A stretch of DNA of 64,000 bases, taken from a virus. The DNA lies in IMG/VR virus record IMGVR_UViG_3300037069_000769, positions 38,322 through 102,321 of that record. One strand, 5' to 3'. The stretch's first letter is position 1. Every line of letters starts with the position of its first letter. A program made the translations under genes and the position numbers. Below, piece after piece: positions 3,472-53,144 of this stretch. The notes under the pieces are model-generated. The model was not told the DNA's origin, did not search any database, and saw only the letters and a program-made list of their open reading frames with translations.

Positions 3472-3536
3472 GGGTGAATTGCGGCAGTGGTGGTTGGTAC
3501 TTAGTTTCACATTCCTTTTGCAAACGTTTGCAAACT

Positions 3537-15568: not shown

Positions 15569-15586
15569 TTCAGTTTGGAGAGTTAA

Positions 15587-22329: not shown

Positions 22330-24846
22330 ATGGGTTCCGAAGTAAGTCAATATCTGTACAGTTACGCCATCCAGCCTTCGAGAGATTGGAGGTACGACTA
22401 CGCACTTGATATTCCGTTGTTAATTGCTCCCCGCAATAATACGAATATGTGCGTAGAAAATATCGACTGGCTGCTTGACGGCACTCCGTTTGAGGAAGGT
22501 GGGAACAGCGGTATTGACTTGGTGTGGACTTCAGTAACGGGAGCGGAGTATTACATCCTTCAGTGGTGTAACAACTCTAGCTTCCGTGGGCCTACGTTAC
22601 GAGCCCTGCAAGTTGCTGACTCCGGCAACCTGTACACAACCTACACGCTGAAGTATATCACCGATGTATGGTACGGTGAGACCATCTATTGGCGGGTGAT
22701 TGCGTATAACACTCACGGTGGAGTTGGAGCTAAGTCGGATACTTGGCAGGCCACTTACGACTGTCCCGGAGGTAACAAGTCTAAGCAGCCTCAAAAGCCG
22801 AGCAACAACGACAGTCAAATCTGTGACAAGTTCGGAGTTCGGATTACTCTGGACGGTCCTGAGCATATGATGTGCTGCGATAAGCAGATGTACACACTGA
22901 ATGCTCAGTACTCGTGCACCGCTGATGATGGGGCACCGATCACAATTTATGCTGTGAACTATGCGATCGCTCAGGGATCGGTAGGCGGCGTATCAATCAT
23001 TCAGCAGAATGACAAGTTAGTAGTCGTCGAGATTGCGGCCACAGCTACTAACAGCTTTACCCTGACTGCCTCTATTACGTTCCAAGTCACTACTGACGAA
23101 GGGACTAAGTTTTTTACGTGCACCGGGCACAAGAAGATTTACACAGACTGTCTGACAGGTAAGGCCAGTGAAAAACCTTGGCTGAAGCTTGCGTATTACC
23201 CTTTGCCCGGCGTGGTGTTCTACACCGATCCATTCTACTCGGGAGATATGGTAGGCACGGACGACACGATGGACCCCGGTCTAGCAGTTCCGGGTATTCT
23301 TGGTCAGGCTCCTTACTGCGTTTCAAATATCCATGACGGGCTTCTTGCCAGTCTTGGGCAGAATGGGGCATACTCTGTTGACCTGATTGCCGTCGGTCCA
23401 GTAATTGAGATCAATCGAACCTACAATTACTTCTATTACGATAATGGAGGGTGCTCCAGCGGCATCCCTATCGGAGAACTCACGTATCAGATCAATGAGG
23501 CCCGCGTTCATATTCCGGTAGGATGTGGTCTGTGGTACGATGCTGAGTACGGGCTCCGTGCTGACAAACGTATGGCCGGTCGAGGATTGGGTTGGGGCTC
23601 AGACGCTTGGGGAGCTAGTACGGATCATCGGAGAGACTGTCAGTTAGGCATTCACACTTGTGGAGGATTTTTCGGGTTTAATACCTACCTAGGTGGTCCC
23701 GATGGAGCTTGCGATGGGTGTCCTCCGGGAACCTCTCCCCAAGATTTCGGTATCGGCGAAGCATTGTTTCCGATTGCAAGCGAGTTGATCGATAACGTAT
23801 TTCTGGGTAACACTCCCGCACTTCCCAACACTGATCCCGTATCTGCTAGCGGCGGTCCTATTGTCATGGGATGGACTGCGGCCTCAATGGGCTCGCTGGA
23901 TAGTACTTGGTGTGGGTCCGGATACGTTCTTGCCCTCAATTACGACTGCTCTTTGAAGGTTACTGCTGGTGCGGGTTGGGCAAATCAAACCGCTCTTGGA
24001 GTAGATACCGACCATCTTGCGGGCAGAGGTCTTCTCACTCAGATAGACGAGCTTTGTGATAAACTGCAAGTTGACTTAGGTTGCGGTTTGGCCCTTGATG
24101 GTAATCAGATTGTCATAAACGGCTCAGACCTTGGAGGTGCGGGCATCGCAGCGGGAAGTGGGTGCTCGTTAAGTGTTATCACCGGATGTGGTACTTACAT
24201 CGATCCAGATACGCACGCTGTCACGTTTAATGGCTCTGACGTAGCTGGAAACGGTCTGGTTGTTGGGGGAACGGGGTGCTCTCTTGATGTGAATCCCGGT
24301 TGCGGTATCTACATTTCAGCCGATCAAGTTACCGTCAAACGTGATGACCTTATTGGGAATGGGTTGAAAGCTGGATACGGTACGTGTTCGATTGACATTA
24401 ACTACGGTTGTGGTCTCACCTTGTCCTATGGTGCTCTGATCGTCAATAAGTCAACTTTGGCAGGCAAGGGGCTGCAAGCTGCGGGCTTATCTTCGTCCTG
24501 TGCTCTTGACGTGTTTGTGGGATGCCACCTCACTATTGAGACCGATAACAGTATTGGGGTAAGTACTGACGACGGCTTGTGTGGTGACGGTCTTACAAAT
24601 GGAACTAGCGGTTCCTGTGAGAACATTAATATCAATCCCGGATGTGGTTTGAAGATCAGTGGAGGCACGGGAACGGGCGGAGCTGTAATGGTAGATAACT
24701 CTGCTCTTGCCGGTGCCCACCTTGTAACCTCAGGAACTTGTGCTCTTGCTGTGAATGTTACTTCCCAAACTGTAGTTACGGGAGTAACCTGTAATGGTGA
24801 TGGGACGATTACAGTAACTACCGCAACGGTAAATGTCGTGGTGTGA
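22330..24846 (+). CDS. Cys-rich tail fibre/spike with FN3-like N-terminus and GCG repeats
   Basis: WTSVTGAEYYILQ...YWRVIAYN (FN3-like); about 36-aa repeats with GCG and AG.GL in C-terminal third. Confidence 0.65.
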   Translation: MGSEVSQYLYSYAIQPSRDWRYDYALDIPLLIAPRNNTNMCVENIDWLLDGTPFEEGGNSGIDLVWTSVTGAEYYILQWCNNSSFRGPTLRALQVADSGNLYTTYTLKYITDVWYGETIYWRVIAYNTHGGVGAKSDTWQATYDCPGGNKSKQPQKPSNNDSQICDKFGVRITLDGPEHMMCCDKQMYTLNAQYSCTADDGAPITIYAVNYAIAQGSVGGVSIIQQNDKLVVVEIAATATNSFTLTASITFQVTTDEGTKFFTCTGHKKIYTDCLTGKASEKPWLKLAYYPLPGVVFYTDPFYSGDMVGTDDTMDPGLAVPGILGQAPYCVSNIHDGLLASLGQNGAYSVDLIAVGPVIEINRTYNYFYYDNGGCSSGIPIGELTYQINEARVHIPVGCGLWYDAEYGLRADKRMAGRGLGWGSDAWGASTDHRRDCQLGIHTCGGFFGFNTYLGGPDGACDGCPPGTSPQDFGIGEALFPIASELIDNVFLGNTPALPNTDPVSASGGPIVMGWTAASMGSLDSTWCGSGYVLALNYDCSLKVTAGAGWANQTALGVDTDHLAGRGLLTQIDELCDKLQVDLGCGLALDGNQIVINGSDLGGAGIAAGSGCSLSVITGCGTYIDPDTHAVTFNGSDVAGNGLVVGGTGCSLDVNPGCGIYISADQVTVKRDDLIGNGLKAGYGTCSIDINYGCGLTLSYGALIVNKSTLAGKGLQAAGLSSSCALDVFVGCHLTIETDNSIGVSTDDGLCGDGLTNGTSGSCENININPGCGLKISGGTGTGGAVMVDNSALAGAHLVTSGTCALAVNVTSQTVVTGVTCNGDGTITVTTATVNVVV

Positions 24847-24939
24847 CCTAGCGGGATCACCTCAAATGTGCTACAATACCCTGAGTCTCATTTGAGGCTT
24901 GGGGTTTTTCTTTTGCAAACGTTTGCACGGAGTTTAGGT

Positions 24940-25362
24940 ATGCCATCAACAACTTTTGCTTGTGCTTGTTGCGGCGGGGGCGGCGGGGGATGTTCCGCAT
25001 GTACCGGAGTCGGGTCTACCTTAACGGTAACTATCAGCAATGCCCCAAACCTAGTTTGCGGCACGTGTAGTGTTATTACGACACCTCGTACTGTGACTAA
25101 GATTGCAGACTGCGAGTGGGAGTCATCTACGTTTAATACTTGCAGTAGGACTTGGAAGCTGGGGGTGATTGTCTTTACCTCTGCGGGAGTACGCCACGTC
25201 CGAGTATCTCTTACTTGCGTATCAGCGGGATGTTCTGATCTGATCTCGTGGACAACTCCGGCTCCTAATGCGTGTCCTCCTCAATCCGGCATTCCGGTAG
25301 ATGGTGGCGGTGGGGGCTCGGCCGCTTGCGACTTCAGTGCTAGCACGGCAGCCGTTGCTTAA
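24940..25362 (+). CDS. Cys/Gly-rich hypothetical protein
   Basis: ATG after palindrome 24914; CACCGGGGGGC and many Cys. Confidence 0.6.
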   Translation: MPSTTFACACCGGGGGGCSACTGVGSTLTVTISNAPNLVCGTCSVITTPRTVTKIADCEWESSTFNTCSRTWKLGVIVFTSAGVRHVRVSLTCVSAGCSDLISWTTPAPNACPPQSGIPVDGGGGGSAACDFSASTAAVA

Positions 25363-25380
25363 ACTTTCTCATATTTACTA

Positions 25381-25409
25381 TTGACACCATGTCAATATAT
25401 CGTTATAAT
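25381..25409 (+). promoter_or_regulatory. consensus sigma70 promoter with inverted repeat over -35
   Basis: TTGACA-17 nt-TATAAT; TATTGACA-CCA-TGTCAATA palindrome. Confidence 0.8.
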
Positions 25410-25494
25410 AAACTAACGTTTACACCGTTGGGGGAAAGTATATACATTACTCAACATTGCAAACGTTTTCACAAATCTACTAAGAATACCCGAT

Positions 25495-25707
25495 ATGACA
25501 CAAGAAAAACACAAAACGGGCGGTGATTCTGGGTTGCCCGAACCTTTGCCAAGGGTGTACGTCATTCTTCTGAATACCAAAGCAGGCCCGGCTGTTCGGG
25601 AAATGCTGCGTCGGGAATGGAACGAGCAAGTAGCGGGCTCTCCTATCTCTGGCATTCCTTTGGTGATACTCGGGCCGGGAGTAGAATCGGTGGAGGTACT
25701 TCCCTGA
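25495..25707 (+). CDS. hypothetical protein
   Basis: 70 aa downstream of promoter. Confidence 0.45.
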   Translation: MTQEKHKTGGDSGLPEPLPRVYVILLNTKAGPAVREMLRREWNEQVAGSPISGIPLVILGPGVESVEVLP

Positions 25708-25745
25708 AATCTGCTTTCGTAATCTCGGTCCTGAAGTGAGAACGT

Positions 25746-25994
25746 TTGAAAATGTTTACTACCCTTGATCCTAGTAGTACCTACAAACCCCATCCTGACG
25801 GAATCTCAGTAATTTCTGGGGATGGGGTTTTGGTTGCCCGAATTGCTTGGTGGTCTGATGATCCGGTAAGAGACGGTATAGGTGAGGCCCGAACTGTTGT
25901 AGCTTGGTATCACAAACGCGGAATTGACGTTACCCGTATTGTACTTGATAGATCGGGTAATGAGCTATTTAGGTGCAGTGGGGAAGACCTATGA
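25746..25994 (+). CDS. hypothetical protein
   Basis: Small ORF in tightly packed run. Confidence 0.5.
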   Translation: MKMFTTLDPSSTYKPHPDGISVISGDGVLVARIAWWSDDPVRDGIGEARTVVAWYHKRGIDVTRIVLDRSGNELFRCSGEDL

Positions 25995-26230
25995 CAGATA
26001 TTTCTGATGTGGCCCGACTCTCTGACATTGAGAAGTGCTTTCTCCGTCGGCCTGTGAAAGATTTGCAAGCGTTTGCAAAAGAGCAGGGGTTCACTGTTCG
26101 CATCGTAGCTGTGAATGGCTATAGATGTGTGGTGACTCAAGGCTTCAACCCTAACCGAGTAAACATCGGTGTTGGGTCTTTGCCCGGAGAACTCGACGGC
26201 CAGATCACTAGCTTTGAAGGGGTTGGGTGA
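25991..26230 (+). CDS. hypothetical protein (I78-inhibitor-like C-terminus)
   Basis: ATGA-coupled; VTQGFNPNRVNI resembles the VT.D...RLN motif. Confidence 0.5.
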   Translation: MTDISDVARLSDIEKCFLRRPVKDLQAFAKEQGFTVRIVAVNGYRCVVTQGFNPNRVNIGVGSLPGELDGQITSFEGVG

Positions 26231-26556
26231 TGAGTAACACTCTGAGTATTGATTTTCTCAAGCGACTTCTTATGGCTAATCAACTTGGGATCAGACTTGA
26301 GCGGATGGATGGCCATAGGCGGTTGCTGTACTCTGTCACCGATTACCCCGGACCCTGCGATGAGGTCAGCTTTGACGAGATGTACCTGCTGAAGTCCGGA
26401 CGGCATGCTCCCATGAAGGAATACGGGTCTCCTTCTGATGCTCTTGACAAAATTGATGCTTGTCTGAAAGATTTGAGCATGCCACCCCTTCTTGAGCAGT
26501 TTCACGATACTTGGGCCGGAGATTGGGCCTTAGCTTGGGGTATAGCCGATGAGTGA
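26227..26556 (+). CDS. hypothetical protein
   Basis: Coupled ORF. Confidence 0.55.
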   Translation: MMSNTLSIDFLKRLLMANQLGIRLERMDGHRRLLYSVTDYPGPCDEVSFDEMYLLKSGRHAPMKEYGSPSDALDKIDACLKDLSMPPLLEQFHDTWAGDWALAWGIADE

Positions 26557-26866
26557 TCCTGATTCAATTATTGTCCCGAAAGCTTTGGGAGAAGCCGTTG
26601 TTAGGTTTACCCGAGCCCGCGAAGTGGCCGAGACTGCACGGGAACTCCGTCTGGCCTTTCGGGACTGTTGGAGTATGTGGTTCAAATGGTTCCGACGGCG
26701 AGAGTTTGAGAGACGCAAGCAGCGTTTGAAGGCGGCATGTCAACGTATGTCGGCTTTAATAACCTCTGCGTATATTGACTCGGACCCCGAGGTAGATGCT
26801 GCTCTACGGGATGATTTAACCCGTATCTTGCAAGACGTTGAAGCGGAGTTCTTTCATGGCAAGTGA
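26549..26866 (+). CDS. hypothetical protein
   Basis: Coupled ORF. Confidence 0.55.
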   Translation: MSDPDSIIVPKALGEAVVRFTRAREVAETARELRLAFRDCWSMWFKWFRRREFERRKQRLKAACQRMSALITSAYIDSDPEVDAALRDDLTRILQDVEAEFFHGK

Positions 26867-27116
26867 TCCCTCTGAGGGGTTATTCGGAGAAGATCGGAAA
26901 CCTGTTATGGTAAAGATATGGGGCAAATGGGTTTTGGTTTCGCCCGAATTGTGTCGTACGGCTGTCTGCCAATACCGCAATTGCATGCAGGCCGGACTTG
27001 AGTGGTGGGACTTCTCAGTACTTTCAACTGTTCTTAACCTCTTGCTGCACGGTTGATCTGAAATGCGATACTTGTAGTACACGACTCCGATTGCCCTAAG
27101 TGTAAGGGAGAGTAAT

Positions 27117-27359
27117 ATGGGAGATTTTCCCCGAAATGTTGATGCTCGAACTAAGCCGATTGAGTCCTATGAGATAGCTCAATGGCACCCACTTCCTGAC
27201 GGTAAGGGTAAGCCAACCGCTGTGTGCTTCATCCTTAATGTTAAGGGTGAACCCCCGAAGGCTATGCGGATGAAGTCACGTCGAGCAGTTGACGAGCTTA
27301 TTGAAGCTTTGATCCTGCACCGTGATTCTGTTTTCCCCGAACCTGAGAAGAAGGTTTGA
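27117..27359 (+). CDS. hypothetical protein
   Basis: GGGAG RBS, 80 aa. Confidence 0.6.
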   Translation: MGDFPRNVDARTKPIESYEIAQWHPLPDGKGKPTAVCFILNVKGEPPKAMRMKSRRAVDELIEALILHRDSVFPEPEKKV

Positions 27360-27406
27360 CCCTTTTCGATTGCAAACGTTTGCAGTCTTTAGTTGGAGAA
27401 TGTGAG

Positions 27407-27727
27407 ATGAGGTTCGGTCGAATCTACAAGCCTTACATCCGTCGGGTGCTCGGAGAGATAGTTGAGGGTAAATTCTCTACTGTTGGAGCACTGACGGATA
27501 GGTTTGATAGTCGGGGTAAACCCACCGTTGCTGAGCTTGAGAGTTGGTACGTCTACCATTACGTGACCCGATTCAGTTTGATGCCCGAATCCCCAAAAAC
27601 CGCCGCAGCCTTTGCTGAGGCTGTCAGACAGGCCCTGAAAAAATTCCGGGAAACTCCCATTGCGGACAGTTATACCATGTTGTATAATACATACTCGGAA
27701 TTTCGGGATCGGTTTCCGAACATTTGA
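27407..27727 (+). CDS. hypothetical protein
   Basis: GGAG RBS after palindrome 27371. Confidence 0.55.
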   Translation: MRFGRIYKPYIRRVLGEIVEGKFSTVGALTDRFDSRGKPTVAELESWYVYHYVTRFSLMPESPKTAAAFAEAVRQALKKFRETPIADSYTMLYNTYSEFRDRFPNI

Positions 27728-27741
27728 TAGGAGAGTGTGCC

Positions 27742-27972
27742 ATGTCCGAATCTAAGATTCCTCAAGTCGGCGATAAGTTCTATCCGGGATTTGAGGATGA
27801 GTATCTCGATCCCCCGAAACCTGAAACTCAGTTGGTAAGGATTGCCAAAATTGGGCAGATGATTGAGATGGACGGTCATGAGGGTCGTGCTGTCTTCGTT
27901 GAAGATCAAGGTTGGTATGACTGCTTTTGGAGTACGAAACTTAAGCAGTTTGTCGCAGTTCTTGAGACGTAA
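27742..27972 (+). CDS. hypothetical protein
   Basis: AGGAG RBS. Confidence 0.55.
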   Translation: MSESKIPQVGDKFYPGFEDEYLDPPKPETQLVRIAKIGQMIEMDGHEGRAVFVEDQGWYDCFWSTKLKQFVAVLET

Positions 27973-27992
27973 CTTTAGCTATTGAGGGTATC

Positions 27993-28214
27993 ATGGTTGA
28001 GAAGATTCAAGTCGATGCGTACAAGACGGCTGATGGGAAAGTGTTCAACGATTCGCAGGAAGCGAAGGATCACGAGGATGTGTTCCTGCTGACTCGATTT
28101 TGCGAGATACATTCGCAAAGCAACCCATGTCCTGATGATCCTACCGGCCTTGCTGATTGGTTGCTTGAGCATGCCAAGGAGTTGCACTCCCTGCTCTCAA
28201 CCATAAAGCCCTGA
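27993..28214 (+). CDS. hypothetical protein
   Basis: GAGG RBS; YKTADGKVF motif common in phage small proteins. Confidence 0.6.
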   Translation: MVEKIQVDAYKTADGKVFNDSQEAKDHEDVFLLTRFCEIHSQSNPCPDDPTGLADWLLEHAKELHSLLSTIKP

Positions 28215-28227
28215 CTTTGGAGGTAGG

Positions 28228-28590
28228 ATGAGTCGTGAAGTATTTGTTCAGTTGATGCAGGAGATGGCCGATCTTACGAAGCCGGCATGTGCGTCTTGTC
28301 GAGTACCTCATGCTTGCTGTGATGGGATGTACTGCGGCATTGCGATTGAGTACGCTAAGAATGTGTGGGGCGTAGCTCTTGAGCCTACAGGTCACCCCGA
28401 TCTTCCTCTGATGGGTGAGACTGGCTGTACTGCTCCACCCCACCTCAGACCTATTTGTACTCTTCATGCTTGCAGTATCGCGGGCATAGGAGCTTCCAGC
28501 GATCCTAAGTGGGATGATCGGTACTATCAACTGCGTGATAAGATCATGGAAACGTATGTTGCCCTCGAAGAAATGGGTGACATGGTGTAG
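28228..28590 (+). CDS. Cys-cluster protein (YkgJ-like)
   Basis: CASC...CC...C and GC......RPIC....C. Confidence 0.6.
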   Translation: MSREVFVQLMQEMADLTKPACASCRVPHACCDGMYCGIAIEYAKNVWGVALEPTGHPDLPLMGETGCTAPPHLRPICTLHACSIAGIGASSDPKWDDRYYQLRDKIMETYVALEEMGDMV

Positions 28591-28597
28591 CTTAGTT

Positions 28598-28696
28598 GCC
28601 CCGGTCCCATGAAAGCTGTTGGGGAGGTATCGCTTAGCCAGTTGACGCCATCAGCAGTATTTGGAAATGGCATGGGTTCGAGTCCCAGCCGGGGCA
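28598..28696 (+). tRNA. tRNA-like RNA, anticodon arm not assignable
   Basis: GCCCCGG/CCGGGGC acceptor stem, TGGG-TTCGAGT-CCCA T arm, GCCAT/ATGGC long variable stem. Confidence 0.55.
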
Positions 28697-28726
28697 TTTT
28701 TGCAAACGTTTGCACGAAAGGGAGAT

Positions 28727-29179
28727 ATGAACGTTCAATACAAGAAGGGCGACCTTCTCGAAGCTACTGAGGACATCATTGCTCATGGCTGTAACTGTGT
28801 GGGCATAATGGGAGCTGGGGTTGCCAGAGTTATCAGTGATCGATGGCCTGTGGTGTTTCCGGCTTACTCGAAGGCTTGCAATGCTGGACTGTTCCAGTTG
28901 GGAACGTGTCAGTTGTTGCAGGTGTCCATTCCGTTTCCAGTCCCTACTCGGGGTATGAGGATTGCCTACGTGGCGAATTTGGGAACTCAGCATGCTCCCG
29001 GCCCAGACTTCAGATTGTCGGCCCTGCGGACGGCTTTGGATAACTTGGTTCTCCGTGTTGGGCGTGAACGTGTAGCCATCCCTAAGATTGGGGCGGGGTT
29101 AGGCGGAGGAAATTGGCACGAGATCGAGAGGGTTCTCTTTGACACCCCTCTGAACTTTACAGTCTATGTCTTGGAGTAG
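28727..29179 (+). CDS. macrodomain protein (ADP-ribose hydrolase, Poa1p/TARG1-like)
   Basis: KGDLL, IAHGCNCVGIMGAGVA, AIPKIGAGLGGGNW. Confidence 0.92.
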   Translation: MNVQYKKGDLLEATEDIIAHGCNCVGIMGAGVARVISDRWPVVFPAYSKACNAGLFQLGTCQLLQVSIPFPVPTRGMRIAYVANLGTQHAPGPDFRLSALRTALDNLVLRVGRERVAIPKIGAGLGGGNWHEIERVLFDTPLNFTVYVLE

Positions 29180-29181
29180 CC

Positions 29182-29418
29182 ATGCGTAAGTATTTGAAAT
29201 TTATCGATGCTGTGCGGACTACGGCGTATGGTGTGTCTTTTTGCATACTTGCTACGGTCTGCTACAGCATGATGTATCGATTGGGAAGTTTGGAATCTCG
29301 GGTGCACCAACTTGAGGATGCCAAGTATCAGCAGTTTCTCAAGGAGGAGATGGAGAAAGTTCCCGGTCCTATGCTACTGCCTCCAAAGCGTGGACGCGAT
29401 CCTCTAGCTCGCAGGTAG
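29182..29418 (+). CDS. small membrane protein
   Basis: GGAG RBS; one TM segment then coiled coil. Confidence 0.5.
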   Translation: MRKYLKFIDAVRTTAYGVSFCILATVCYSMMYRLGSLESRVHQLEDAKYQQFLKEEMEKVPGPMLLPPKRGRDPLARR

Positions 29419-30150
29419 ACCGTGCGGAGATTTGTCGGTAAACCTCGATTCAGTAATTGCTGGATGACTTGTGCTTGCCTATTTCTGGCAGGACGATTAC
29501 GAGGTGTTGTTATCATTTTTCCAGCAGGTCAAGTAATGCCTCATTTGATTGGCATAACCCGTAGGGGTAAGTTGATTCACTTGATTCACTGTCGTGATCC
29601 TTACTGTGATTGTTGGAACTACATCTTTTGGGGAAGACTTCAAGTTTTTTCACCCAAGTTGTTTGATCGTCGTAGAGGGTGTCCTTATTATGTGTTAGGA
29701 AGACTATGCCTGATATGACGATCAACAATTCGAGCATTCAGCGTAGGGCTTTCTCTTTTGAGTATACGGGCAATGTTGACAGTGAGCCTACTGCGATGCG
29801 GTGGGAGCATTGGATGGAAGATGTGATGAAGTTCATTGACGGTATCGAACCTAAGTGTTTGGTGAATGTCATTGAGCATGGCCATGTCGGGAAACACATC
29901 ATTATCGTTTGGTATTGGAGAGTGCTGTGATCCCTCTGACAGGATTTCATCGACAAATGCCTGAGTTACGGATGACCGAGGATGAAGAGAATCGATTGAT
30001 GGTTCGTAAGGTCTCCGGTGGGGTACTCATTAAGAATAACCGAGCTAGGTGCGTTTGTCGTCAGAGTGCAAAGTCTCGTCGAGATATTCCTCTGTTGGAC
30101 CGTCGGGCCGAAAAGAAACGAGAACGTCAAGCACGCCGTCGAAATAGGTC

Positions 30151-30179
30151 TTGACAGTTGTTCATTTGAGCGGTATAAT
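30151..30179 (+). promoter_or_regulatory. consensus sigma70 promoter
   Basis: TTGACA-17 nt-TATAAT. Confidence 0.8.
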
Positions 30180-30434
30180 CCAATAGCAACGACCGTGCCA
30201 ATCCGGTTGGGATGTTTACCCTCAAGACCGACAATGGAGGGAGAGTTAGTGATCTTTGCTACATAGGGTCCATTCGGAGTGTTTCCGCATAACTCGCAGC
30301 CTCGATTGGTTACTTAGGCAGGTAGGTAAGGCAGGGTAACGGTTAAGATGGTCTAACGCTCCTGTGATTGCACTGGGTTGTAGTCAGCGATCCAGCCCTA
30401 TACTTGTCGAGTTGACTTCTGTAAGGAGAATGAA

Positions 30435-30632
30435 GTGGGTGGTTCGGTAACGTACGATGTGTACACGTATCGCATGGGCAAATTTTGGCTGTGCGATAGT
30501 TTCGAGAGTGAGGAGATGAATAAGACTCCGGAACTGCTCGCACAGATCAACGATCCTACGTTACGTCATCGAGGACGGTGGCGGGTGGTGAAACGTCAGG
30601 GTAAGAAGGCTCGGGCATTCCTGCCTGCGTAG
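30435..30632 (+). CDS. hypothetical protein
   Basis: AAGGAG RBS before GTG. Confidence 0.5.
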   Translation: MGGSVTYDVYTYRMGKFWLCDSFESEEMNKTPELLAQINDPTLRHRGRWRVVKRQGKKARAFLPA

Positions 30633-30645
30633 TTCTTACCTTGTC

Positions 30646-30715
30646 TAAGTCGTAGCTCAAACAGGCAGAGCGTCGGAGAATTCCGAGGTTGTGGGTTCAA
30701 ATCCCACCGGCTTAG
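30646..30715 (+). tRNA. tRNA-like RNA with shrunken (4-nt) anticodon loop
   Basis: TAAGTCG/CGGCTTA acceptor, TA-GCTC...GAGC D arm, TCGGA-GAAT-TCCGA, GTGGG-TTCAAAT-CCCAC T arm. Confidence 0.75.
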
Positions 30716-30748
30716 GTTTGCAAACGTTTGCAAAGGTGAGTTCCAAGA

Positions 30749-31204
30749 ATGTCTGACGAATACATCAGTATCAAAGCTGCTTGTAAACTTGCAGGCGTAT
30801 CCCAAGGCACACTATACTTAGAGATCGATCGAGGTAATCTGAAAGCTCTGAAAGCTACTGTCGGTCTTAACAAATATAGACGCACACAGTATCGAATCCT
30901 CCGATCTGATTTTGAGGTATGGGTCAACTCTTACAGACTTACCCGACCGTCTACGAATGCGGCGGGTGTTTGTGTATTCTGCGGTAAGGCTTGTTCAACC
31001 GCAGTTACCAGTTGCGATACTTGTCCCTCTCAGGAAATCATTGCTAAGGGCACTGCTGAAGCTCGGGCAGAGTGGGACGCGGTTACTGAGTTGGGAAGAC
31101 GGGCATCCGGAAAACCTGTTGAGTTTACCTTGCCTCGATTTATTCCTCGCACAAGACGTGAGAGGGATATTGTCCATAACCTAAGTCGTGAGGCAACCGG
31201 TTGA
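30749..31204 (+). CDS. excisionase-like HTH protein with zinc ribbon
   Basis: ISIKAACKLAGVSQGTLYLEIDRGNLKA...YRILRSD; CVFC...CDTC. Confidence 0.75.
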   Translation: MSDEYISIKAACKLAGVSQGTLYLEIDRGNLKALKATVGLNKYRRTQYRILRSDFEVWVNSYRLTRPSTNAAGVCVFCGKACSTAVTSCDTCPSQEIIAKGTAEARAEWDAVTELGRRASGKPVEFTLPRFIPRTRRERDIVHNLSREATG

Positions 31205-31692
31205 AGATTTCCCTGTTGACATTAGGGCCGGGTGATTGCGGTATCCGAAGATTCTTTTGCAAAGAGGATCGGATATACACTGAAGAGACTGTGCCCTTTC
31301 AAGTACTTCGATGGGATGATGTAAGATGCGTGCTGTGGATGGCTGATGGCACAATTATTACGGATATTCCGTCTCGACAGGTTCGAGTAGTTCCAAACGA
31401 GGAGTTTGAGGATGTCCTCTCCGACTTCAGCTTCATCCGATCCGAAGTTGCCAAGGGAGACCGTAACCGCAAGGCTGTACGAGCAAAAAGCAGACTCCGG
31501 GTATTCCCTGATCCACGAAGGGAGGTGCCTGATATGGGGCACCCTCCTCGGATTGTGTGTTGGAGTAATCGAATGTTCTTGCTTTACGATACTCTCTATT
31601 GGATGGAGGGCTTTGTAGATTATCGTGAGATTAAGGACATGTGCTGGATGCCCACCGAAACTCAACCCGATGCGAGGGACCGATTGCCGTGA
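31201..31692 (+). CDS. hypothetical protein
   Basis: 163 aa coupled ORF. Confidence 0.5.
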   Translation: MKISLLTLGPGDCGIRRFFCKEDRIYTEETVPFQVLRWDDVRCVLWMADGTIITDIPSRQVRVVPNEEFEDVLSDFSFIRSEVAKGDRNRKAVRAKSRLRVFPDPRREVPDMGHPPRIVCWSNRMFLLYDTLYWMEGFVDYREIKDMCWMPTETQPDARDRLP

Positions 31693-31870
31693 TTGAGTTA
31701 AAGATTTGTTCGGTGATTGTGACTGCCTTGCTTGCCTTGCTCGTGAGAAGTATCTGCCTCCAGCAACGCATCTCAATGTGGGAGTGTTTGATTGATGCTC
31801 TCGAAGACACCTATGGTTGGGTGATTCGGTGGAAGATACGATTTCGTAGGTTTAGGGAGCGTAGAAGGTA

Positions 31871-32467
31871 ATGACGCATGAACTGGTGATCGCTCACTAT
31901 GCAGAGAGTTTGGATTGGGTTAGAGGTCAGGAGTGGGCTTCCCCTCAAATCTACTCTAAAGGGCAGACCGTAGCGACACCCTTGCCGATTGTTGATCTTC
32001 TTCCAAATGTGGGCCGAGAGGCTCACACTTACCTGCATTACCTGATTACCCGATACGACAGTTTGCCTGACTATGTTGGGTTCTGTCAGGGCAATCCCTT
32101 CGATCATTGCAGAACGTTTATCCCTGAGCTGAGAGCCGCGTTCAGAAGGCCGAAACCGTTTAGTGGTTTTGGGTGGCAGTTACACTGCGATCCAAGAGGG
32201 TGTCCTGAGCATTGTGGGCTCCCTCTCGGGTTTTACTCGGATCGACTATTTGCCCGAAAGTTTTCAGAATTTGACTTTCAAATTGGGGCACAGTTCGTAG
32301 TCAGTGCCGAGAGAGTTAAGCGTCATCCTAAGTCATTTTACGAATGGCTGTATGTGTTTACCCGCGAGGATGAGGTAATGCCGTGGGTACTTGAACGACT
32401 GTGGGCAGTAATCTTCGATGGTTGTACGAACCTACGGAGACACGCTATTCCGGGAGACGGACCTTGA
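31871..32467 (+). CDS. DUF3431-family protein
   Basis: LVIAHYAESLDW, LPNVGREAHTYLHY, FCQGNPFDH, GAQFVVS, LERLW. Confidence 0.8.
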   Translation: MTHELVIAHYAESLDWVRGQEWASPQIYSKGQTVATPLPIVDLLPNVGREAHTYLHYLITRYDSLPDYVGFCQGNPFDHCRTFIPELRAAFRRPKPFSGFGWQLHCDPRGCPEHCGLPLGFYSDRLFARKFSEFDFQIGAQFVVSAERVKRHPKSFYEWLYVFTREDEVMPWVLERLWAVIFDGCTNLRRHAIPGDGP

Positions 32468-32593
32468 GTTGGGATCAAGCTTGGTGGTGGAGTATTCGAG
32501 GATTTGCCGCCGCAATTACGTGTGTACTGATAGTTATCGGCCTGATCCTCACGTCTTGTAGTGAGTACCCCTATGACGATCAGATGTGACCTA

Positions 32594-32622
32594 TTGACAA
32601 GTTATTGTCAGTATGGTACAAT
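32594..32622 (+). promoter_or_regulatory. sigma70 promoter with inverted repeat over -35
   Basis: TTGACA-17 nt-TACAAT; TGACAA-GTTA-TTGTCA. Confidence 0.75.
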
Positions 32623-32629
32623 AGGTAAA

Positions 32630-32980
32630 TGAAATTGAATCTCGGCCCCTAGAACAGACTCTTAGACCGGGAGACTGTAAGCTGCGGGGCGGCTTTTCGG
32701 GGGAAGCTAGGGGCCGAGTGCTTCTAAAGCTGCTTACTACTTATCAAGTCGGAAGGGCCTCAATCTCCTCTGGACCCCGTTCCGCTACTTATAGTAGTAA
32801 GCAGTTTTCTTTTGTTGATGGAAAAACCTTGGTGCAATGCCAAGGTGGTCTCTCTTGAGATCGAGTGATGTGCACTCCGGGGCGAACCCGGACCCCATTG
32901 TAATGGTGAGTAAAGTCCTCAGAATCCTTTGACTCATCGGGAGAGGCGTAACGCACCTGCCGACAAATCGGCAACATCGC
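32630..32980 (+). ncRNA. candidate structured non-coding RNA
   Basis: No + strand ORF of 60 aa or more; 12-bp stems 32641-52/32707-18 and 32730-41/32793-804 plus smaller hairpins; between a promoter and palindrome 32984. Confidence 0.6.
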
Positions 32981-33029
32981 TTTTGCAAACGTTTGCAATT
33001 CCTCGCTCTCTATCTGAAAGTGTTCTCCC

Positions 33030-33350
33030 ATGAAGCAGGATTTCAAATCCAATCAGTTTAGTGATGTTAACGGTAACCCCGCAGGGGGTCAGACGTTCGG
33101 GCCGGGAGTTTGTGTTGCATGGCAAAACGGTCCTTTGGCCGTTGACGGGGAGCGTAAGGAACCTAACGGCTGCTTTGTTGAGACAATCATCGCGATTGCT
33201 ATTGATCGTTTGAACTTTTATGAGCAGAGCAAGTTTGCGAGTGATTACAACAAGTCAGCGTTGCATCACCTCCATTTGGCTATGGCGGCACTTGAGCAGC
33301 GAACAAAGGACCGCGAGGCTCGTGGCGTTGAAGGTACTCATAAGGTCTGA
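33030..33350 (+). CDS. tad1: Tad1-like immune-signal sponge protein
   Basis: WQNGP...NG...IAIDRLNFYEQSKFASDYNKSALHHL...RTKDREARGVEGT matches recalled Tad1 pattern (DRL..FQ...F.S.EN..AL.H...R..DR..R.V.GT). Confidence 0.75.
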   Translation: MKQDFKSNQFSDVNGNPAGGQTFGPGVCVAWQNGPLAVDGERKEPNGCFVETIIAIAIDRLNFYEQSKFASDYNKSALHHLHLAMAALEQRTKDREARGVEGTHKV

Positions 33351-33383
33351 ACGATCAGTTGCTACCGTTTGAAAGGTTTGAGG

Positions 33384-34820
33384 ATGTCTCCTGATCGATA
33401 TATTGAAGCTTTGCACGCCGAAATCGGAAAAACTAAGTTTTTCGATTATCAGCCTAGTTCTGAGACTTCACGTCTTATCGAAATGTACTCGGATGGGTCA
33501 GTCCTTGATCCTCGAAAGAAAGTGTCATCTTGGGATGTTGTTCTTGGCGGTCCCCGCAAAGATACCCCAACTCTGAGATTACACAATGATGGAGAGATAC
33601 TTGTCTTGATGGCTCTCACGTCTCAAGGTACGTGGCAGGGTCGGGATCGTCGTGGTGGGGGTCGATGTTTGATCGTCCCGCAACCCAAAGATGGGCTTAC
33701 GCGGTGGGACATTATCGCAAACCCCTACAAGTATTTCTCTGAGTTCAAACCTGATGACGATGAGGCCGAGTTTCGGTATCAGGAAAGTCTTCCGGTCCAG
33801 ATCGACTGGGCTCCTCACGAGTGGGACATTCGTAAGTTAATCAAGCATCCTGAGCGGTACGCTCGAAGCGACACTGCTGTATGTCTGCTTGCTAACGATC
33901 GACCGGATTACTTTAAGCAGGTGGTGCAAACGCTTGCAAAAAATCCTGAAATTAAGGCTGGAATGCCTGTGTTCGCATTTCTGGACCTGCCTCTCGAACA
34001 GGAATTTTTGAACTGTCAGAGAGTGCAAACCGAAATCCTGAACGAGCTTATCCCCAATGCCGTAGTGATCTGGAGAAAGGTCAACTTCGGGTGCGGGAGA
34101 AATCTCATTGATGCCCGTAAGCAGTTGTTCGACCACTTGGGATTCGAGTATGTGTTCATGTTTGAGGACGATATGATCGTCTCCCCCGATTACATGGATA
34201 CCTGTATTCGACTGATGCGGTGGTGTCAGAGATTCTATGACAACGTTGGGGCAGTGCAGGCTTGGAACCCTTGTCGGCATTCTACGGATTGGAAACTTAA
34301 GGCTTCCAACTTAGTGCGTCCAACGTTTGAGAATCTGTGGGGTTATCTGATGTCCAAGCGGGCATGGGATGCCATCAAGGCTCAGATGTATACCTACACC
34401 AACTTGTTTCTTGGTGGTGATTATCGTCTGAGACCTCATAAGTCTATTGCCCACTGGTTTAGGCTTAAAACCAACCGTAAGCAGCAGCGGGTAGGATCAA
34501 CTCAATTTCCGCTCGATGTTGAGTTTGCAACAAATCGACAGTTGTATATCGACGGGCCTCCAACTGGACAGGATGCTGCTACCGCACTGCTTCTTGATTG
34601 TGCGGGATTTGTCCGTGTGACTACTGTCGTAAATCGAGGGATGAATATCGGGAAGGTCGGTCTGCATATGACACCTACCCGATGGATGCAGCAAGGCATG
34701 GACGAGATTGCCTTGGACGCCGTACCTACCCCTGATACTTTTGAAGTGCAGGGTCAGGTTGAAACTCCAAAAGATGCGGAGTCACCCGTTGAGGGGTTTG
34801 AATACATTAGGAGGACGTAA
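33384..34820 (+). CDS. GT-A fold glycosyltransferase with unknown N-terminal domain
   Basis: LLANDRPDYF, NFGCGRN, FMFEDDMIVSPDY, NLWG, NIGKVGLH. Confidence 0.75.
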   Translation: MSPDRYIEALHAEIGKTKFFDYQPSSETSRLIEMYSDGSVLDPRKKVSSWDVVLGGPRKDTPTLRLHNDGEILVLMALTSQGTWQGRDRRGGGRCLIVPQPKDGLTRWDIIANPYKYFSEFKPDDDEAEFRYQESLPVQIDWAPHEWDIRKLIKHPERYARSDTAVCLLANDRPDYFKQVVQTLAKNPEIKAGMPVFAFLDLPLEQEFLNCQRVQTEILNELIPNAVVIWRKVNFGCGRNLIDARKQLFDHLGFEYVFMFEDDMIVSPDYMDTCIRLMRWCQRFYDNVGAVQAWNPCRHSTDWKLKASNLVRPTFENLWGYLMSKRAWDAIKAQMYTYTNLFLGGDYRLRPHKSIAHWFRLKTNRKQQRVGSTQFPLDVEFATNRQLYIDGPPTGQDAATALLLDCAGFVRVTTVVNRGMNIGKVGLHMTPTRWMQQGMDEIALDAVPTPDTFEVQGQVETPKDAESPVEGFEYIRRT

Positions 34821-35098
34821 TGTCTACCATTGTCGAGATGTTTCAGAAGACTTTGAGTCTTGCTAAGGCCCTCATTACCGGTACGGATGTAAGTGAGGAC
34901 CGGCTCCGGGCACGCCTTGAGATTTGTTCGACGTGCGATAAGGTTAAGCATGATGGCAACACCATGCGATGCGGGATTTGCGGCTGTAAGTTGGCCGATA
35001 CTGGTCTTGTGAACCTTGCTCGATACGAGGAAGACCCTGACAAGAAGTACGGCTGCATGCACCCCGATGGAAGCCGGTGGAAGGCTAAGGGTGTGTGA
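34820..35098 (+). CDS. small Cys-rich protein (DUF6171-like)
   Basis: RLEICSTC...CGICGC...C.....W. Confidence 0.65.
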   Translation: MSTIVEMFQKTLSLAKALITGTDVSEDRLRARLEICSTCDKVKHDGNTMRCGICGCKLADTGLVNLARYEEDPDKKYGCMHPDGSRWKAKGV

Positions 35099-35280
35099 TG
35101 CCTCAAAAGAATTATCGGTCAGTGCTAATTTCCGACCAAGCGTTTATGGAACTTAGGCGAAACTCTGCTAATATGAGAGTACCTCAGCAGAGATTCCTCA
35201 GTGATCTGATTCTTTTGGTTGTGGAAAAGCATCCTGAGATTCTTGCTGAATTGCAGGAATCTTATTCAGCGGGAGAGTGA
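35095..35280 (+). CDS. small putative ribbon-helix-helix protein
   Basis: RSVLIS strand then two helices, 61 aa. Confidence 0.4.
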   Translation: MMPQKNYRSVLISDQAFMELRRNSANMRVPQQRFLSDLILLVVEKHPEILAELQESYSAGE

Positions 35281-35393
35281 GATGCTGGAGTTCTTGTTAA
35301 TCATTCACAGCTTGATGCCGTTAGGTGTGGAACTTTGGGATAAGTGTTATCCCCACAGAGTAGGTAACTTGCAATTAGCAAGAGAGAGTGCCG

Positions 35394-37160
35394 ATGAAGA
35401 TTGCGATCGTCAGCGAGGGCCTGTCAACGCCGAGCGGGTTTGGGCAGCAGGTCAGGCTATTATCAGCGGGTCTGGCGAAGAGGGGCCACGAGGTAACGGT
35501 TGTTTCTAGGAATACTCGTTATCCCGAAGCTCCCTCAGGAGTCAACGAGTGGCGACTGGTAACCCTTGATAATCTTGACCATCTTGATCGAGCCTTACAT
35601 CAATTGCAGCCTGATGCTGTGATCGTGTTGTGGTTTACCTCGATGGTTATTCACTTGAGTGGCATGAAGGCAGCTCCGGGTAACTGCCCGGTGTTCTTCT
35701 GGTTCCCTTGGGAGGGAAGTACCGTTCCTAAGGAAGCTGTCAACTGGATGGCTGGAACTCCCCGTGGGTCTGTCGTGCATCTGAGTCAGTTTGCTCAGAA
35801 GTTGTGGGACAAGACCACAGTAGGGTCGGATACCGTGATTCCTCATGGAGTCGATCTGACCATTTTCAAGAAGCTTCCGGAACGCACTCTGGATGTAGTG
35901 GAGAATCTCCGTGAGAAGTGGAGTGAGAGGCTTAACGCCAATCTTCACAGCTCATTCTTGGTGTTGAATGTTGATCGAAACATTCGACATAAGCGTTGGG
36001 ATGCGACGTATGCCTTTTTGCAAACGTTTGCAAAACGATCCGGCAAGAAGGTCAAGTTAATTGCCCACACTCACAAGGTTGGGGAAAAGCTTGATGGAGG
36101 ACTGTCTAGCTATGATCTCGGTAGGCTTGAAGAGGCGTACGATCTTCGAGGTAAGACAGCCTATACCGGATTTGATTGGGGTAACGGGCTTTCTCGTGAG
36201 GAAGTAGCTGAGTTGTACCATCTGGCCGATCTTCGGATCAGTACGTCTGAGGGTGAGGGCTTTGGCATTCCCACTATTGAGGCGGCTGCTTGCGGTTGTC
36301 CTCAAGTGCTTACTCGGCATACGGTTATGTCAGAATTGCTTCCCGAGAATAGCCCCTCTTTAGTGCCTCCAGCTTTCATGGAGTTTGATCGAGATTCCCT
36401 TTGGGCCGTTCCCAACGTTACGGCGATGGTTGATCGCACTCTTGAAGTGATGATGGACGCCGATACGTATGAGAATGTGATTGAACCCAACTACCGACAC
36501 GTCATCGAGAAGTTTGATTCGGAGGTTGTGTGCGATCAGTGGCATAATCTGCTGACTGGTAAAGCAGCCACCTCGACTAAGCGGGAGTTGTGGAATTCGC
36601 ATAGGTGGGGATTCCGTGGGGCCATTGAACGTCAGTTGGCCATTCGGGCTCTTGTAACTACCCTTGCCAAGTTTCAGATTCGCAAGGTGTTCGAGGTAGG
36701 ATCGTTTGACGGTAGATTTTTGGCTATGGCTCTCGAAATCGGCTTGGATGCCACGGGCCTTGAGCCGGACATTGAAGCTTTACAGCAGGCTGATCTCCGA
36801 GTTCGTACTCGGATAAAGTCTGATGTTGTGGTGAATCACAGTTGGCCCGCAGCTAATGCCGTAGTTCTGAATGATTCGCTGGGAATGGTCTCGGCATTGC
36901 ACAAGTCTGAGGGTGTGCGGATTGTGCTTGACCGAGTGTCGGGCTACCCGTTTGCGTTTATTCAGAACAGCCCGTTGTATATGTGGAAGGAAGAGATTCC
37001 TGACTTGTCGTATGTCTCGGATTACCTGCAATCCAAGAATATGACAAGACGCCATGACCTTGAAATTCTTGCTAAAAAACAAGATCAGTTCTTTGTGCAT
37101 GAAATCTGGCAGCAGGGTCAGGACACTTCGCACGTTCCTCCCCAATTAGCGAGTTCGTAG
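35394..37160 (+). CDS. GT4 glycosyltransferase fused to methyltransferase-like domain
   Basis: SGFGQQ, VIPHGVD, EGEGFGIPTIEAAACGCP; C-terminal VFEVGSFDGRFL...GLEPD. Confidence 0.88.
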   Translation: MKIAIVSEGLSTPSGFGQQVRLLSAGLAKRGHEVTVVSRNTRYPEAPSGVNEWRLVTLDNLDHLDRALHQLQPDAVIVLWFTSMVIHLSGMKAAPGNCPVFFWFPWEGSTVPKEAVNWMAGTPRGSVVHLSQFAQKLWDKTTVGSDTVIPHGVDLTIFKKLPERTLDVVENLREKWSERLNANLHSSFLVLNVDRNIRHKRWDATYAFLQTFAKRSGKKVKLIAHTHKVGEKLDGGLSSYDLGRLEEAYDLRGKTAYTGFDWGNGLSREEVAELYHLADLRISTSEGEGFGIPTIEAAACGCPQVLTRHTVMSELLPENSPSLVPPAFMEFDRDSLWAVPNVTAMVDRTLEVMMDADTYENVIEPNYRHVIEKFDSEVVCDQWHNLLTGKAATSTKRELWNSHRWGFRGAIERQLAIRALVTTLAKFQIRKVFEVGSFDGRFLAMALEIGLDATGLEPDIEALQQADLRVRTRIKSDVVVNHSWPAANAVVLNDSLGMVSALHKSEGVRIVLDRVSGYPFAFIQNSPLYMWKEEIPDLSYVSDYLQSKNMTRRHDLEILAKKQDQFFVHEIWQQGQDTSHVPPQLASS

Positions 37161-37164
37161 AAGG

Positions 37165-39003
37165 ATGACACTACAAACAGATATTAAGTCTTGGAATGCT
37201 TCCTACGCGATGCGTGGGAGCTTCGAGGGCACGGTTGTACTTACTAACGAGGATGGGACTTACACCACCTCGGATTTAAGATGGACCCCGTTTGTAGTGT
37301 CTCTTCAGTCTGCCGTCGGCGGATCAATTGGGATTGAGGATACGTCATGTTTTGCTGGCACTGTTGATTGGATCAACGGTATCGTGCAAAGTGTTGACGA
37401 CTCTGAGCAGTTGTCCGAGCGAAGTGTGACGTTGAAGGTGCGGTCGTATTTTGCTCAGTTGGCGAAGAAGCCCATTGAGACGTACTATATCGTCACAAAC
37501 ACCACGGACGCTATTAACGCAACATTGCAGATTTTTGGTGCCATCCCGGCAAGTTTTATTGACTTGACCGAGATGACCACCAATAACTACTTCTTCAGTG
37601 TGATCTCCGGGAATAATCTCCTTGACGAACTTACTAAGGTTTGTCAGGTAGCCGAGTCTGACGTGTTTGTTCAGGTCGGCGGCAAGATGACGGTTATCCC
37701 GTGGAAGGATAACAGAAGCTCTGTTGAGATTACAATTCCAGATGTTGCAGTTATCAGTGCTGAACTGACTCGCAACGATGATCCCTTGCCTAGTCGTATT
37801 GTTGGGCGGGGTCGATTTGTCTCGTACTATCGATGCGGATGGCAGACTGCGGGAGGTGATGGTAATCCTCTCGAAGCTCAGCCCTTCGACCCGAGTAAAG
37901 ACCCATTGACTCGCGGCTCTCAAACGAAGTGCTTGCAGAACGGAGCATACACTTCATCGGTCACTGTACCTGTACCTAACGCTCAGGGCAACAGTGAGTC
38001 GGCCCGCAATAGTGTTGTCACTGAGACGAGTGGAAACGGTGAAGTTTCTGCGTTGTCCCCTGATGGCACTCAGGCTGAAGTTACCGGCCCAAGCGGCAGT
38101 GCCCTTACTGACGGTAGTTTGACTTTAACTATCAGTCAGGAAATTCGCCAGAAACCTCCTAACGAGTATCAGGCGGCTAATGCCAAGCAAGGGCCTTTGT
38201 CACCTATCGTGGCCAGCGGGAATGAGATTCTCAAGAAAATCTATGATCGTTTGACAGATCATCACGATTTTACTCAGGGGCAGGGAGGTGGGGGAAACTC
38301 CGATGCGACCGCTCAGACTCCTGATCCAATTCAGATGACAATGTTTGTGGACGATAGTGCCCTTAAGGCCCAGTTCGGAGTGATCTACGATCAGTACGAG
38401 AATGAGTACATTTCTGATTTTGAAACTCTGTTTGACGTGATCGTCCGACGGTTTCAAGAGTCGAAGATGGCTCGTAACTCATGGAAGGTTGAGTGCGTGT
38501 ACTTGCCCTGTTTGAAGTTGGGGCAGGTTGTGCAGTTTAACACTCCGAAAGACGGTCGTACGATCACTGGGTTGTTGGCAGCTATCTCACTTCCATACGA
38601 AGCCGCCCCATCCGCTCGCATGACCTTGACGGTCTTGTCATTTGAGGAGCTTGGCAGCACTACCTACGTTTCAGGTAATCTGTTCCGATACCCTGAAATG
38701 TGTGGGTATAACGGCGAGGACTGGTTTGTTACTGGCGTGGTTGGTATGAATGGGGGTTATGCCACGATACGGAGTGGTGCAACCCTAAATCAGACTCTGC
38801 TGTTGGAGGTCGGGGCAGATTACACTCTTAGCTATGAGAGTACAGGTGGAACTATCACAGCAACTGTGACTGATACTGGAGGTACTGTTATGACGGGTGC
38901 TGGAACGTTCACCGCCCGCAACATTGCCAACACGTTTACGTTTGCCGCCTCTGGAGTAACGTTTTTCGGCAGACCTTACGTATATAAAACGGTGGTCAGG
39001 TAA
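37165..39003 (+). CDS. probable tail hub/tip structural protein
   Basis: 612 aa S/T/G-rich; FAGTVD, LTKVCQ, QFGVI...ENEYI, YLPCLKLGQVV resemble tail hub proteins. Confidence 0.55.
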   Translation: MTLQTDIKSWNASYAMRGSFEGTVVLTNEDGTYTTSDLRWTPFVVSLQSAVGGSIGIEDTSCFAGTVDWINGIVQSVDDSEQLSERSVTLKVRSYFAQLAKKPIETYYIVTNTTDAINATLQIFGAIPASFIDLTEMTTNNYFFSVISGNNLLDELTKVCQVAESDVFVQVGGKMTVIPWKDNRSSVEITIPDVAVISAELTRNDDPLPSRIVGRGRFVSYYRCGWQTAGGDGNPLEAQPFDPSKDPLTRGSQTKCLQNGAYTSSVTVPVPNAQGNSESARNSVVTETSGNGEVSALSPDGTQAEVTGPSGSALTDGSLTLTISQEIRQKPPNEYQAANAKQGPLSPIVASGNEILKKIYDRLTDHHDFTQGQGGGGNSDATAQTPDPIQMTMFVDDSALKAQFGVIYDQYENEYISDFETLFDVIVRRFQESKMARNSWKVECVYLPCLKLGQVVQFNTPKDGRTITGLLAAISLPYEAAPSARMTLTVLSFEELGSTTYVSGNLFRYPEMCGYNGEDWFVTGVVGMNGGYATIRSGATLNQTLLLEVGADYTLSYESTGGTITATVTDTGGTVMTGAGTFTARNIANTFTFAASGVTFFGRPYVYKTVVR

Positions 39004-53026: not shown

Positions 53027-53073
53027 TCTCCGGGCCTGAGTGAGGAACATTCCTTGCAAGGGGTTGCAGGAAG

Positions 53074-53114
53074 ATGGGGAGTGGGGATTCGTTCCCTGCT
53101 CCCCATTCCTGTTT
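53074..53114 (+). terminator. GC-rich hairpin with TTCG loop
   Basis: ATGGGGAG...TTCG...CTCCCCAT then CCTGTTTT. Confidence 0.65.
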
Positions 53115-53144
53115 TGCAAACGTTTGCAAATTTGGAGAAATCTA

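Follow-up and report, generated by a model that had tools for sequence, protein, structure and literature searches.

The DNA analyzed here, referred to as the window, comprises 64,000 nt and corresponds to bases 38322-102321 of a 102,321-bp IMG/VR virus record with an estimated completeness of 80%. Positions refer to the window unless they are marked as genome positions. The phage is tailed, with genes for portal, capsid, tape-measure, family-A polymerase and helicase found, and its + strand carries essentially all genes. Relatives with a 71-78% identical capsid protein are syntenic with it. A weak hint at the host is given by the 2.7-kb contig L138 (CAYTDU010000866.1), which was binned with an uncultured Gemmatimonadaceae MAG and on which the capsid gene is 76% identical.

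Synteny was compared with the relatives G006 to G013. Where the junction could be located, in six relatives, the gene for the glycosyltransferase (window 33369) comes directly after the tail gene (window 22330-24846). Therefore, the region of about 24.9-33.4 kb represents an accessory island unique to this phage. It spans from approximately 24900 to 33368 (8.5 kb), is absent from the six syntenic relatives examined and is likely a counter-defence island. The following features of the island were considered:

28727-29179: macro-domain protein
30645-30716: aberrant tRNA (Rfam 50.2 bits)
30749-31204: HTH_17 excisionase-like protein
31871-32467: DUF3431 protein
32594-32622, + strand: sigma70-type promoter; TTGACA (32594-32599), 17-nt spacer with an extended -10 TG, TACAAT (32617-32622)
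32641-32718, + strand: domain 1; perfect 12-bp G+C-rich stem with a 54-nt interior folding into three small hairpins
32726-32816, + strand: domain 2, probable intrinsic terminator; 16-bp base stem and 51-nt interior, directly followed by TTTTCTTTTGTT
32826-32862, + strand: two short hairpins, ACCTTGG..CCAAGGT and GGTCTC..GAGATC, the first weakly terminator-like
32863-32982, + strand: domain 3; multi-branched fold with a 9-bp closing helix GAGTGATGT/ACATCGCTT including two G-U pairs
32983-32998, no strand assigned: palindrome TTGCAAACGTTTGCAA, one copy of a genome-wide 16-bp motif
33030-33350, + strand: Tad1-like gene (106 aa) without a sigma70-like promoter of its own

The tRNA is aberrant in that 4 nt replace the 7-nt anticodon loop. 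ARAGORN names no anticodon for it, and a copy of the palindrome follows 1-2 nt later.

By similarity the gene downstream of the stretch is indeed Tad1-like, as the first-pass annotation had proposed. Its product matched PDB Tad1 8kbb (phmmer, E 3.5e-5, residues 29-105), the annotated Tad1 of Bacillus phage SBSphiJ7 (tblastn, 39% identity over 77% of the query) and PHROG 2428, with the match to characterised Tad1 confined to the C-terminal ~75 residues. Two homologues were 72% (P0002) and 70% (P0004) identical, and P0004 is encoded by 62 contigs of up to 83 kb. In five other phages, including L008, L009, Vibrio phage SD25 and Bacillus phage SBSphiJ7, the Tad1-like genes begin 0-118 nt behind the preceding gene and lack a comparable leader. 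Between 32780 and 33040 the best promoter-like match reached only 4+4 of 12 positions, and after 33030 no sigma70-like promoter was found before window 39020.

The promoter at 32594-32622 had been described as near-consensus, which proved correct: 11 of the 12 consensus positions are matched, the spacer is 17 nt long and the TG is present. From the spacing, transcription is predicted to start near 32629. When at least 10 of 12 matches and spacers of 16-18 nt were demanded, the 102-kb genome yielded 23 sigma70-like promoters, every one of them on the + strand. Nearly all of the 23 have a 17-nt spacer; members within the window are located, among others, at 3443, 25381, 30151, 32594, 39020 and 42846. 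We regard this + strand class as real and the predicted promoter at 32594 as a good member of it. At ten intergenic promoters of the class an ORF begins about 0-50 nt past the predicted start site, whereas the nearest ORF of at least 60 aa downstream of 32594 begins 401 nt past it.

T-rich tracts are rare on the + strand. In total, only 21 were found, and about ten of them directly adjoin stems of 9-13 bp; these sites can be taken as the intrinsic terminators of the phage. One of them combines a 12-bp stem with a 48-nt interior (genome 24494-24565). Several of the stem and T-tract terminators are directly followed by a promoter, so that the whole gives a readable transcription map. The order terminator, then promoter occurs at three other sites (genome 16134/16150, genome 25150/25168 and window 3449/3443) and is reversed at 32594, where the promoter precedes the terminator. 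Behind the perfect promoter TTGACA-17-TATAAT at 30151, about 460 nt (window 30186-30645) separate the promoter from the aberrant tRNA. The sole ORF in them, of 65 aa, is doubtful, and this region may be another non-coding transcript.

Both long-range stems of the stretch are located where they had been placed from the letters. The arms of domain 1, CTCGGCCCCTAG/CTAGGGGCCGAG (32641-32652 and 32707-32718), form a perfect 12-bp inverted repeat, and the domain folds with an MFE of -40.9 kcal/mol (z -3.9). Its minus-strand fold reaches -33.6 kcal/mol, the inner helices using G-U pairs that are available on the + strand only. The arms of domain 2, CTGCTTACTACT/AGTAGTAAGCAG (32730-32741 and 32793-32804), are likewise perfect over 12 bp. 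This stem is lengthened to 16 bp by AAAG/TTTT, an extension which includes a G-U pair, and the domain has a z-score of -7.2. Together with the adjoining TTTTCTTTTGTT it fits the stem-plus-T-tract pattern of the other terminators of the phage. Therefore, promoter, domain 1 and putative terminator can be regarded as one delimited unit that runs from 32629 to ~32812 and measures about 184 nt. Its RNA would begin with a 5' tail of 12 nt, continue with domain 1 and a linker of 11 nt, and close with the terminator hairpin. The 51-nt interior is atypically long for an intrinsic terminator, and the termination efficiency of domain 2 is uncertain for this reason.

Perfect 12-bp inverted repeats with arms within 150 nt are expected about 0.6 times in the 64-kb window (64,000 x 150 x 4^-12). 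Five or six were seen, and two of these adjoin each other in this ORF-free stretch. The nested CGGAA/TTCCG helix and the small hairpins that had also been pointed out, including CCTTGG/CCAAGG (32826-32846) and GCCGA/TCGGC, are present. However, the interiors of the two domains fold no better than shuffled sequences: z was -1.0 for domain 1 (35 of 200 shuffles fold as well) and -1.6 for domain 2 (18 of 200). The folding signal therefore resides in the long closing stems, and neither the nested helix nor the other small hairpins are significant.

Further downstream the signal is weaker. The segment 32816-32858 had a z-score of -2.95 and the third part (32859-32982) one of -2.5, with 3 of 200 shuffles folding as well; domain 3 ends right at the palindrome and its status is uncertain. 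On the + strand the whole 411 nt gave z -4.8. A scan of the genome in 180-nt windows with 20 dinucleotide shuffles each placed the stretch about 13th of 852 windows (z about -4.6 to -4.75), against a background in which z averages -1.04 (sd 1.4) and falls below -4 in 2.9% of the windows. The stretch is thus clearly structured, yet it is not singled out by thermodynamics alone.

Stepwise folds of the growing transcript gave the same picture throughout. The fold of the modules was unchanged and stable at every transcript length tried: domain 1 was the same at all lengths, and the 5' strand of the terminator stayed unpaired until its 3' partner was made. No antiterminator competing with the terminator appeared in these folds.

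The first-pass annotation had let the RNA end at the palindrome. This has to be revised. The motif TTGCAAACGTTTGCAA occurs 34 times in the window, where 0.3 copies are expected, and 51 times in the 102-kb genome when up to 2 mismatches are allowed. Examples in the window are the copies at 3518, 9983, 21898, 30718, 32983, 43737 and 62488. Most copies precede a start codon by 2-45 nt and immediately adjoin the Shine-Dalgarno sequence on its upstream side, and two are found directly behind a terminator (genome 24574 and window 24913). Since it is a genome-wide motif of 51 copies, the palindrome is not the end of the RNA element; the copy at 32983-32998 belongs to the upstream region of the Tad1-like gene. 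Its 12-nt core GCAAACGTTTGC is the same as that of E. coli PurR operators, e.g. at purM and xanP (PMC3159470), which suggests a LacI/PurR-family operator or titration site. A role as an RNA hairpin is also conceivable. No Pfam domain, and specifically none of the LacI family, is present in the ORF at 51992-53026.

Exact copies of the palindrome abound in five very distant phages (G001-G005; IMGVR_UViG_3300040801_004562 and four others) with protein identities of 25-33%, whereas the much closer syntenic relative G006 (IMGVR_UViG_3300037459_000160) has 0 copies. The distribution of the motif thus does not track the phylogeny of the phages but another factor, which is perhaps the host. The copies at window 28700 and genome 29678 are directly preceded by the T-arm-like GGTTCGA. 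Another copy, in the region genome 16108-16178 before the window, tops a terminator hairpin (TTACCGTGCAAACGTTTGCACGGTAA plus T tract) which is followed by a promoter 16 nt later.

Coding in the stretch is unlikely. Between 32590 and 33029 no + strand ORF exceeds 46 aa, in line with the earlier description of the stretch. The density ascribed to the rest of the genome holds in part only, as a crude ORF map shows several other gaps of at least 250 nt. The 46-aa ORF has a GTG start inside the P1 stem and lacks a Shine-Dalgarno sequence. Neither this ORF nor an 87-aa ORF on the - strand has homologues, and neither is a called protein in a collection of 5.8 billion proteins, in which the adjacent Tad1-like protein is present on three contigs. 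That the stretch encodes one or more small proteins (46-, 31- and 34-aa ORFs exist on the + strand) is, to judge from its two longest ORFs, hardly credible.

Known RNA families did not account for the stretch either, as had been supposed. At gathering thresholds Rfam 15 gave no match in it (riboswitches, tRNA, tmRNA, RNase P, 6S, C4, GOLLD/ROOL and others). At E-values up to 10, the region 32400-33200 yielded only mir-251, a chance match with E 7.6 and 14.9 bits where the threshold is 45, and no tRNA signal or T-loop. ARAGORN found no tRNA or tmRNA in the stretch; the tRNA at 30645-30716 is the only one of the window. A retron ncRNA (msr-msd) was rejected, with no reverse transcriptase among the flanking genes (DUF3431, Tad1-like, glycosyltransferases). 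A MITE-like or repeated palindromic element was rejected as well, the stretch being present in a single copy in the genome and giving chance matches only in three public collections.

No homologue of the RNA was found across phages, plasmids, the phage's own genome, 15 related records, pattern scans and covariance-model scans. The blastn search of INPHARED phages and PLSDB plasmids gave nothing; against the own genome and five phages sharing the palindrome the palindrome alone matched, and against ten relatives chosen by their major capsid protein only chance-level matches were obtained. Scans for the stem pattern yielded chance matches only: in IMG/VR none in one scan and a single match (L107) of unrelated interior in another, two matches with unrelated interiors in JGI metagenome contigs, and no match in GTDB genomes. 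A single-sequence covariance model of domain 1 recovered itself in the own genome as a control and found nothing in 30 viral records or 23 further loci. Among the loci related via three flanking proteins, none had a comparable non-coding stretch. Within the genome and these collections the stretch is therefore a single-copy orphan sequence.

Based on these data, the best-supported reading is that the stretch is a self-contained unit giving rise to an orphan phage small non-coding RNA of about 184 nt. We put it forward tentatively, at somewhat less than an even chance, and it is compatible with a terminated leader. Host sigma70 RNA polymerase would start near 32629 and make a 12-nt single-stranded 5' end. 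Domain 1 would be transcribed next and form a 12-bp stem of very high stability that carries a branched top, followed by domain 2 as a long hairpin whose 16-bp base stem adjoins the U tract. The majority of transcripts would stop at ~32812 and leave the ~184-nt non-coding RNA. Some read-through into the Tad1-like gene is likely, since this gene lacks its own promoter. The product would most probably act in trans-acting regulation or protein binding. The DNA itself shows promoter, stems and U tract, the lack of an ORF and the single-copy orphan status, whereas transcription, termination and any function are deduced.

Two properties expected of a stand-alone small RNA gene are present at the sequence level. 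Its own putative promoter matches the strongly strand-biased class, and the 12-bp stem (16 bp when extended) with TTTTCTTTTGTT would provide a Rho-independent terminator at the 3' end. Furthermore, the long distance to the next ORF sets this promoter apart from the ten others, and the order promoter, then terminator would delimit a transcript. The modular fold is stable at all lengths, its G-U pairs (inner helices and stem extension) together with the T tract favour the + strand, and the two longest ORFs remain uncalled as genes, unlike the neighbouring Tad1-like protein.

Several observations argue against a small RNA. Since the searches returned no homologues, the structure is backed neither by covariation nor by a trace of selection. 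The interiors are at chance level, the z-score is not unique in the genome, and the 51-nt interior of the terminator is atypical. About 170 nt between terminator and palindrome are unaccounted for. In a search of the phage genome for antisense targets the longest complementarity was 11 nt, compared with 11-15 nt in shuffled controls, and thus no target stood above chance. Two sites of the genome match an anti-Shine-Dalgarno-like loop (UCUCCUCU) over 10 nt, neither of them at a ribosome-binding site.

In its layout the unit resembles small RNAs of phages and prophages (lambda OOP, P22 sar, prophage DicF and IpeX) as well as morons. Morons are promoter-gene-terminator cassettes in the accessory regions of phages. 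A host-type promoter, a short ORF-free transcript and a stem with U-tract terminator would be shared with these systems, as is the position in a variable accessory region between conserved modules. The candidate unit could thus be a moron-like arrangement of promoter, payload and terminator in an accessory island, with an RNA instead of a protein as payload. However, it has no sequence or Rfam relation to any of the phage small RNAs, nor an antisense target above chance in the phage genome, and with ~184 nt and a 78-nt branched 5' domain it is larger than lambda OOP (~77 nt). The tRNA-like RNA of the same island (30645-30716) is comparable insofar as a structured module, domain 3 in our case, ends 0-3 nt from a copy of the palindrome. 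The stretch differs from it in lacking a tRNA signal and a T-loop.

An alternative that we consider possible, at roughly one chance in four, is that the Tad1-like/glycosyltransferase operon has the stretch as its long 5' leader, with the promoter at 32594 driving the operon and the terminator being read through partly or conditionally. From the terminator to the ATG at 33030, and onwards to 39020, sigma70-like promoters are missing, and the genes from 33030 to 39003 therefore need transcription from upstream. Early expression from promoters of the host type is usual for anti-defence genes, which would suit such an arrangement. Domain 1, only 12 nt past the predicted start site, could possibly be a cis-acting antitermination RNA like HK022 put, or a phage antiterminator protein could be involved. 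With HK022 putL/putR and Bacillus EAR it shares the stable stem-loop domain right after the promoter, and the terminators and long operon downstream; however, put consists of two simple stem-loops, in contrast to the 12-bp stem with a branched top found here, and no Rfam match links domain 1 to a known antitermination RNA. A terminator with such a strong 16-bp base and a good U tract speaks against a leader, as do the Tad1-like genes of the five other phages, which do without one. Additionally, the palindrome precedes the Tad1-like gene as it precedes many others, and two of its copies also directly trail a terminator, so expression of the Tad1-like gene may depend on that motif instead.

Less probable, though still deserving attention, is an explanation without a dedicated RNA function. 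The stretch would then be a mosaic joint in a recently acquired island, at which a promoter and one or two terminators, acting as insulators between modules, came to lie side by side, and its stems would be terminator-type hairpins. The absence of the 8.5-kb island from the six relatives, the orphan status and the non-significant interiors agree with this, and the terminator at genome 24494-24565 offers a precedent for a 12-bp stem with a long interior. However, domain 1 has a perfect 12-bp stem without a U tract and is thus not a terminator. A near-consensus extended -10 promoter that runs straight into a terminator would also be wasteful, and the three other terminator/promoter pairs are arranged in the productive order.

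The transcript, in its 184-nt or the whole 354-nt form, might represent a new class of phage anti-defence RNA; an anti-defence decoy had been envisaged in the first-pass annotation. Early in infection, a promoter of the host type would supply this structured RNA as a decoy or inhibitor, which would complement the Tad1-like sponge, the protein with the macro domain and the aberrant tRNA-like RNAs found in the island. The sole point in favour is the position of the unit in an accessory island with an anti-defence flavour, and we consider this doubtful.

A ligand-sensing leader of the sponge gene, which had also been envisaged, is very improbable. Domain 1 would be the aptamer of such a riboswitch and domain 2 its terminator expression platform. 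The order promoter, structured domain, terminator and gene is indeed that of terminator-type riboswitches, and part of domain 1, the 9-mer UGUAAGCUG, is similar to the terminator's 3' strand. However, no alternative pairing of the terminator 5' strand, and hence no antiterminator, was seen at any transcript length, and the 12-bp, G+C-rich P1 is too stable for switching. No conserved aptamer was recognised: the interior of domain 1 is at chance level, Rfam gave no match even at E-values up to 10 and homologues were not found. The gene begins 218 nt past the terminator, behind another motif, and the Tad1-like genes of the five other phages lack such a leader.

Equally remote is an element acting at the level of DNA. 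The inverted repeats would then bind protein or form cruciforms at an origin, belong to a recombination site, or be the terminal repeats of a small mobile element. All pairs of the 12-bp arms are Watson-Crick, which makes the arms equally good on either strand, and the two elements are similar in arm length and spacing (54 and 51 nt). However, the region is not A+T-rich, it occurs once in the genome and was not found in the collections searched, and its two arm sequences, being unrelated, do not form a repeat family. Moreover, the inner helices and the stem extension need G-U pairs, and the T tract is present on the + strand only.

The unit is accordingly best described as a real and well-delimited orphan candidate, either for a small RNA gene or for a terminated leader, which to judge from its sequence is new as such and known in kind. 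Its main value is that promoter, predicted 5' end and putative terminator are defined. If expressed, it would be a non-coding payload in an island that otherwise carries counter-defence-type genes, and thereby a candidate for counter-defence or host takeover by means of an RNA, for which to our knowledge few examples exist. The more general lesson of the locus concerns the transcription map of the phage, with its strand-pure sigma70 promoters, stem and T-tract terminators and 51-copy palindrome.

Finally, the lowest fold z-scores among the 180-nt windows of the genome (-5.8 to -6.5, below that of the stretch) were located at 37160-37700, 53000-53180, 15560-15740 and 3560-3740. In the first of these regions (window 37160-37700), the beginning of a gene for 612 aa carries a perfect inverted repeat of 12 bp (37167/37290).
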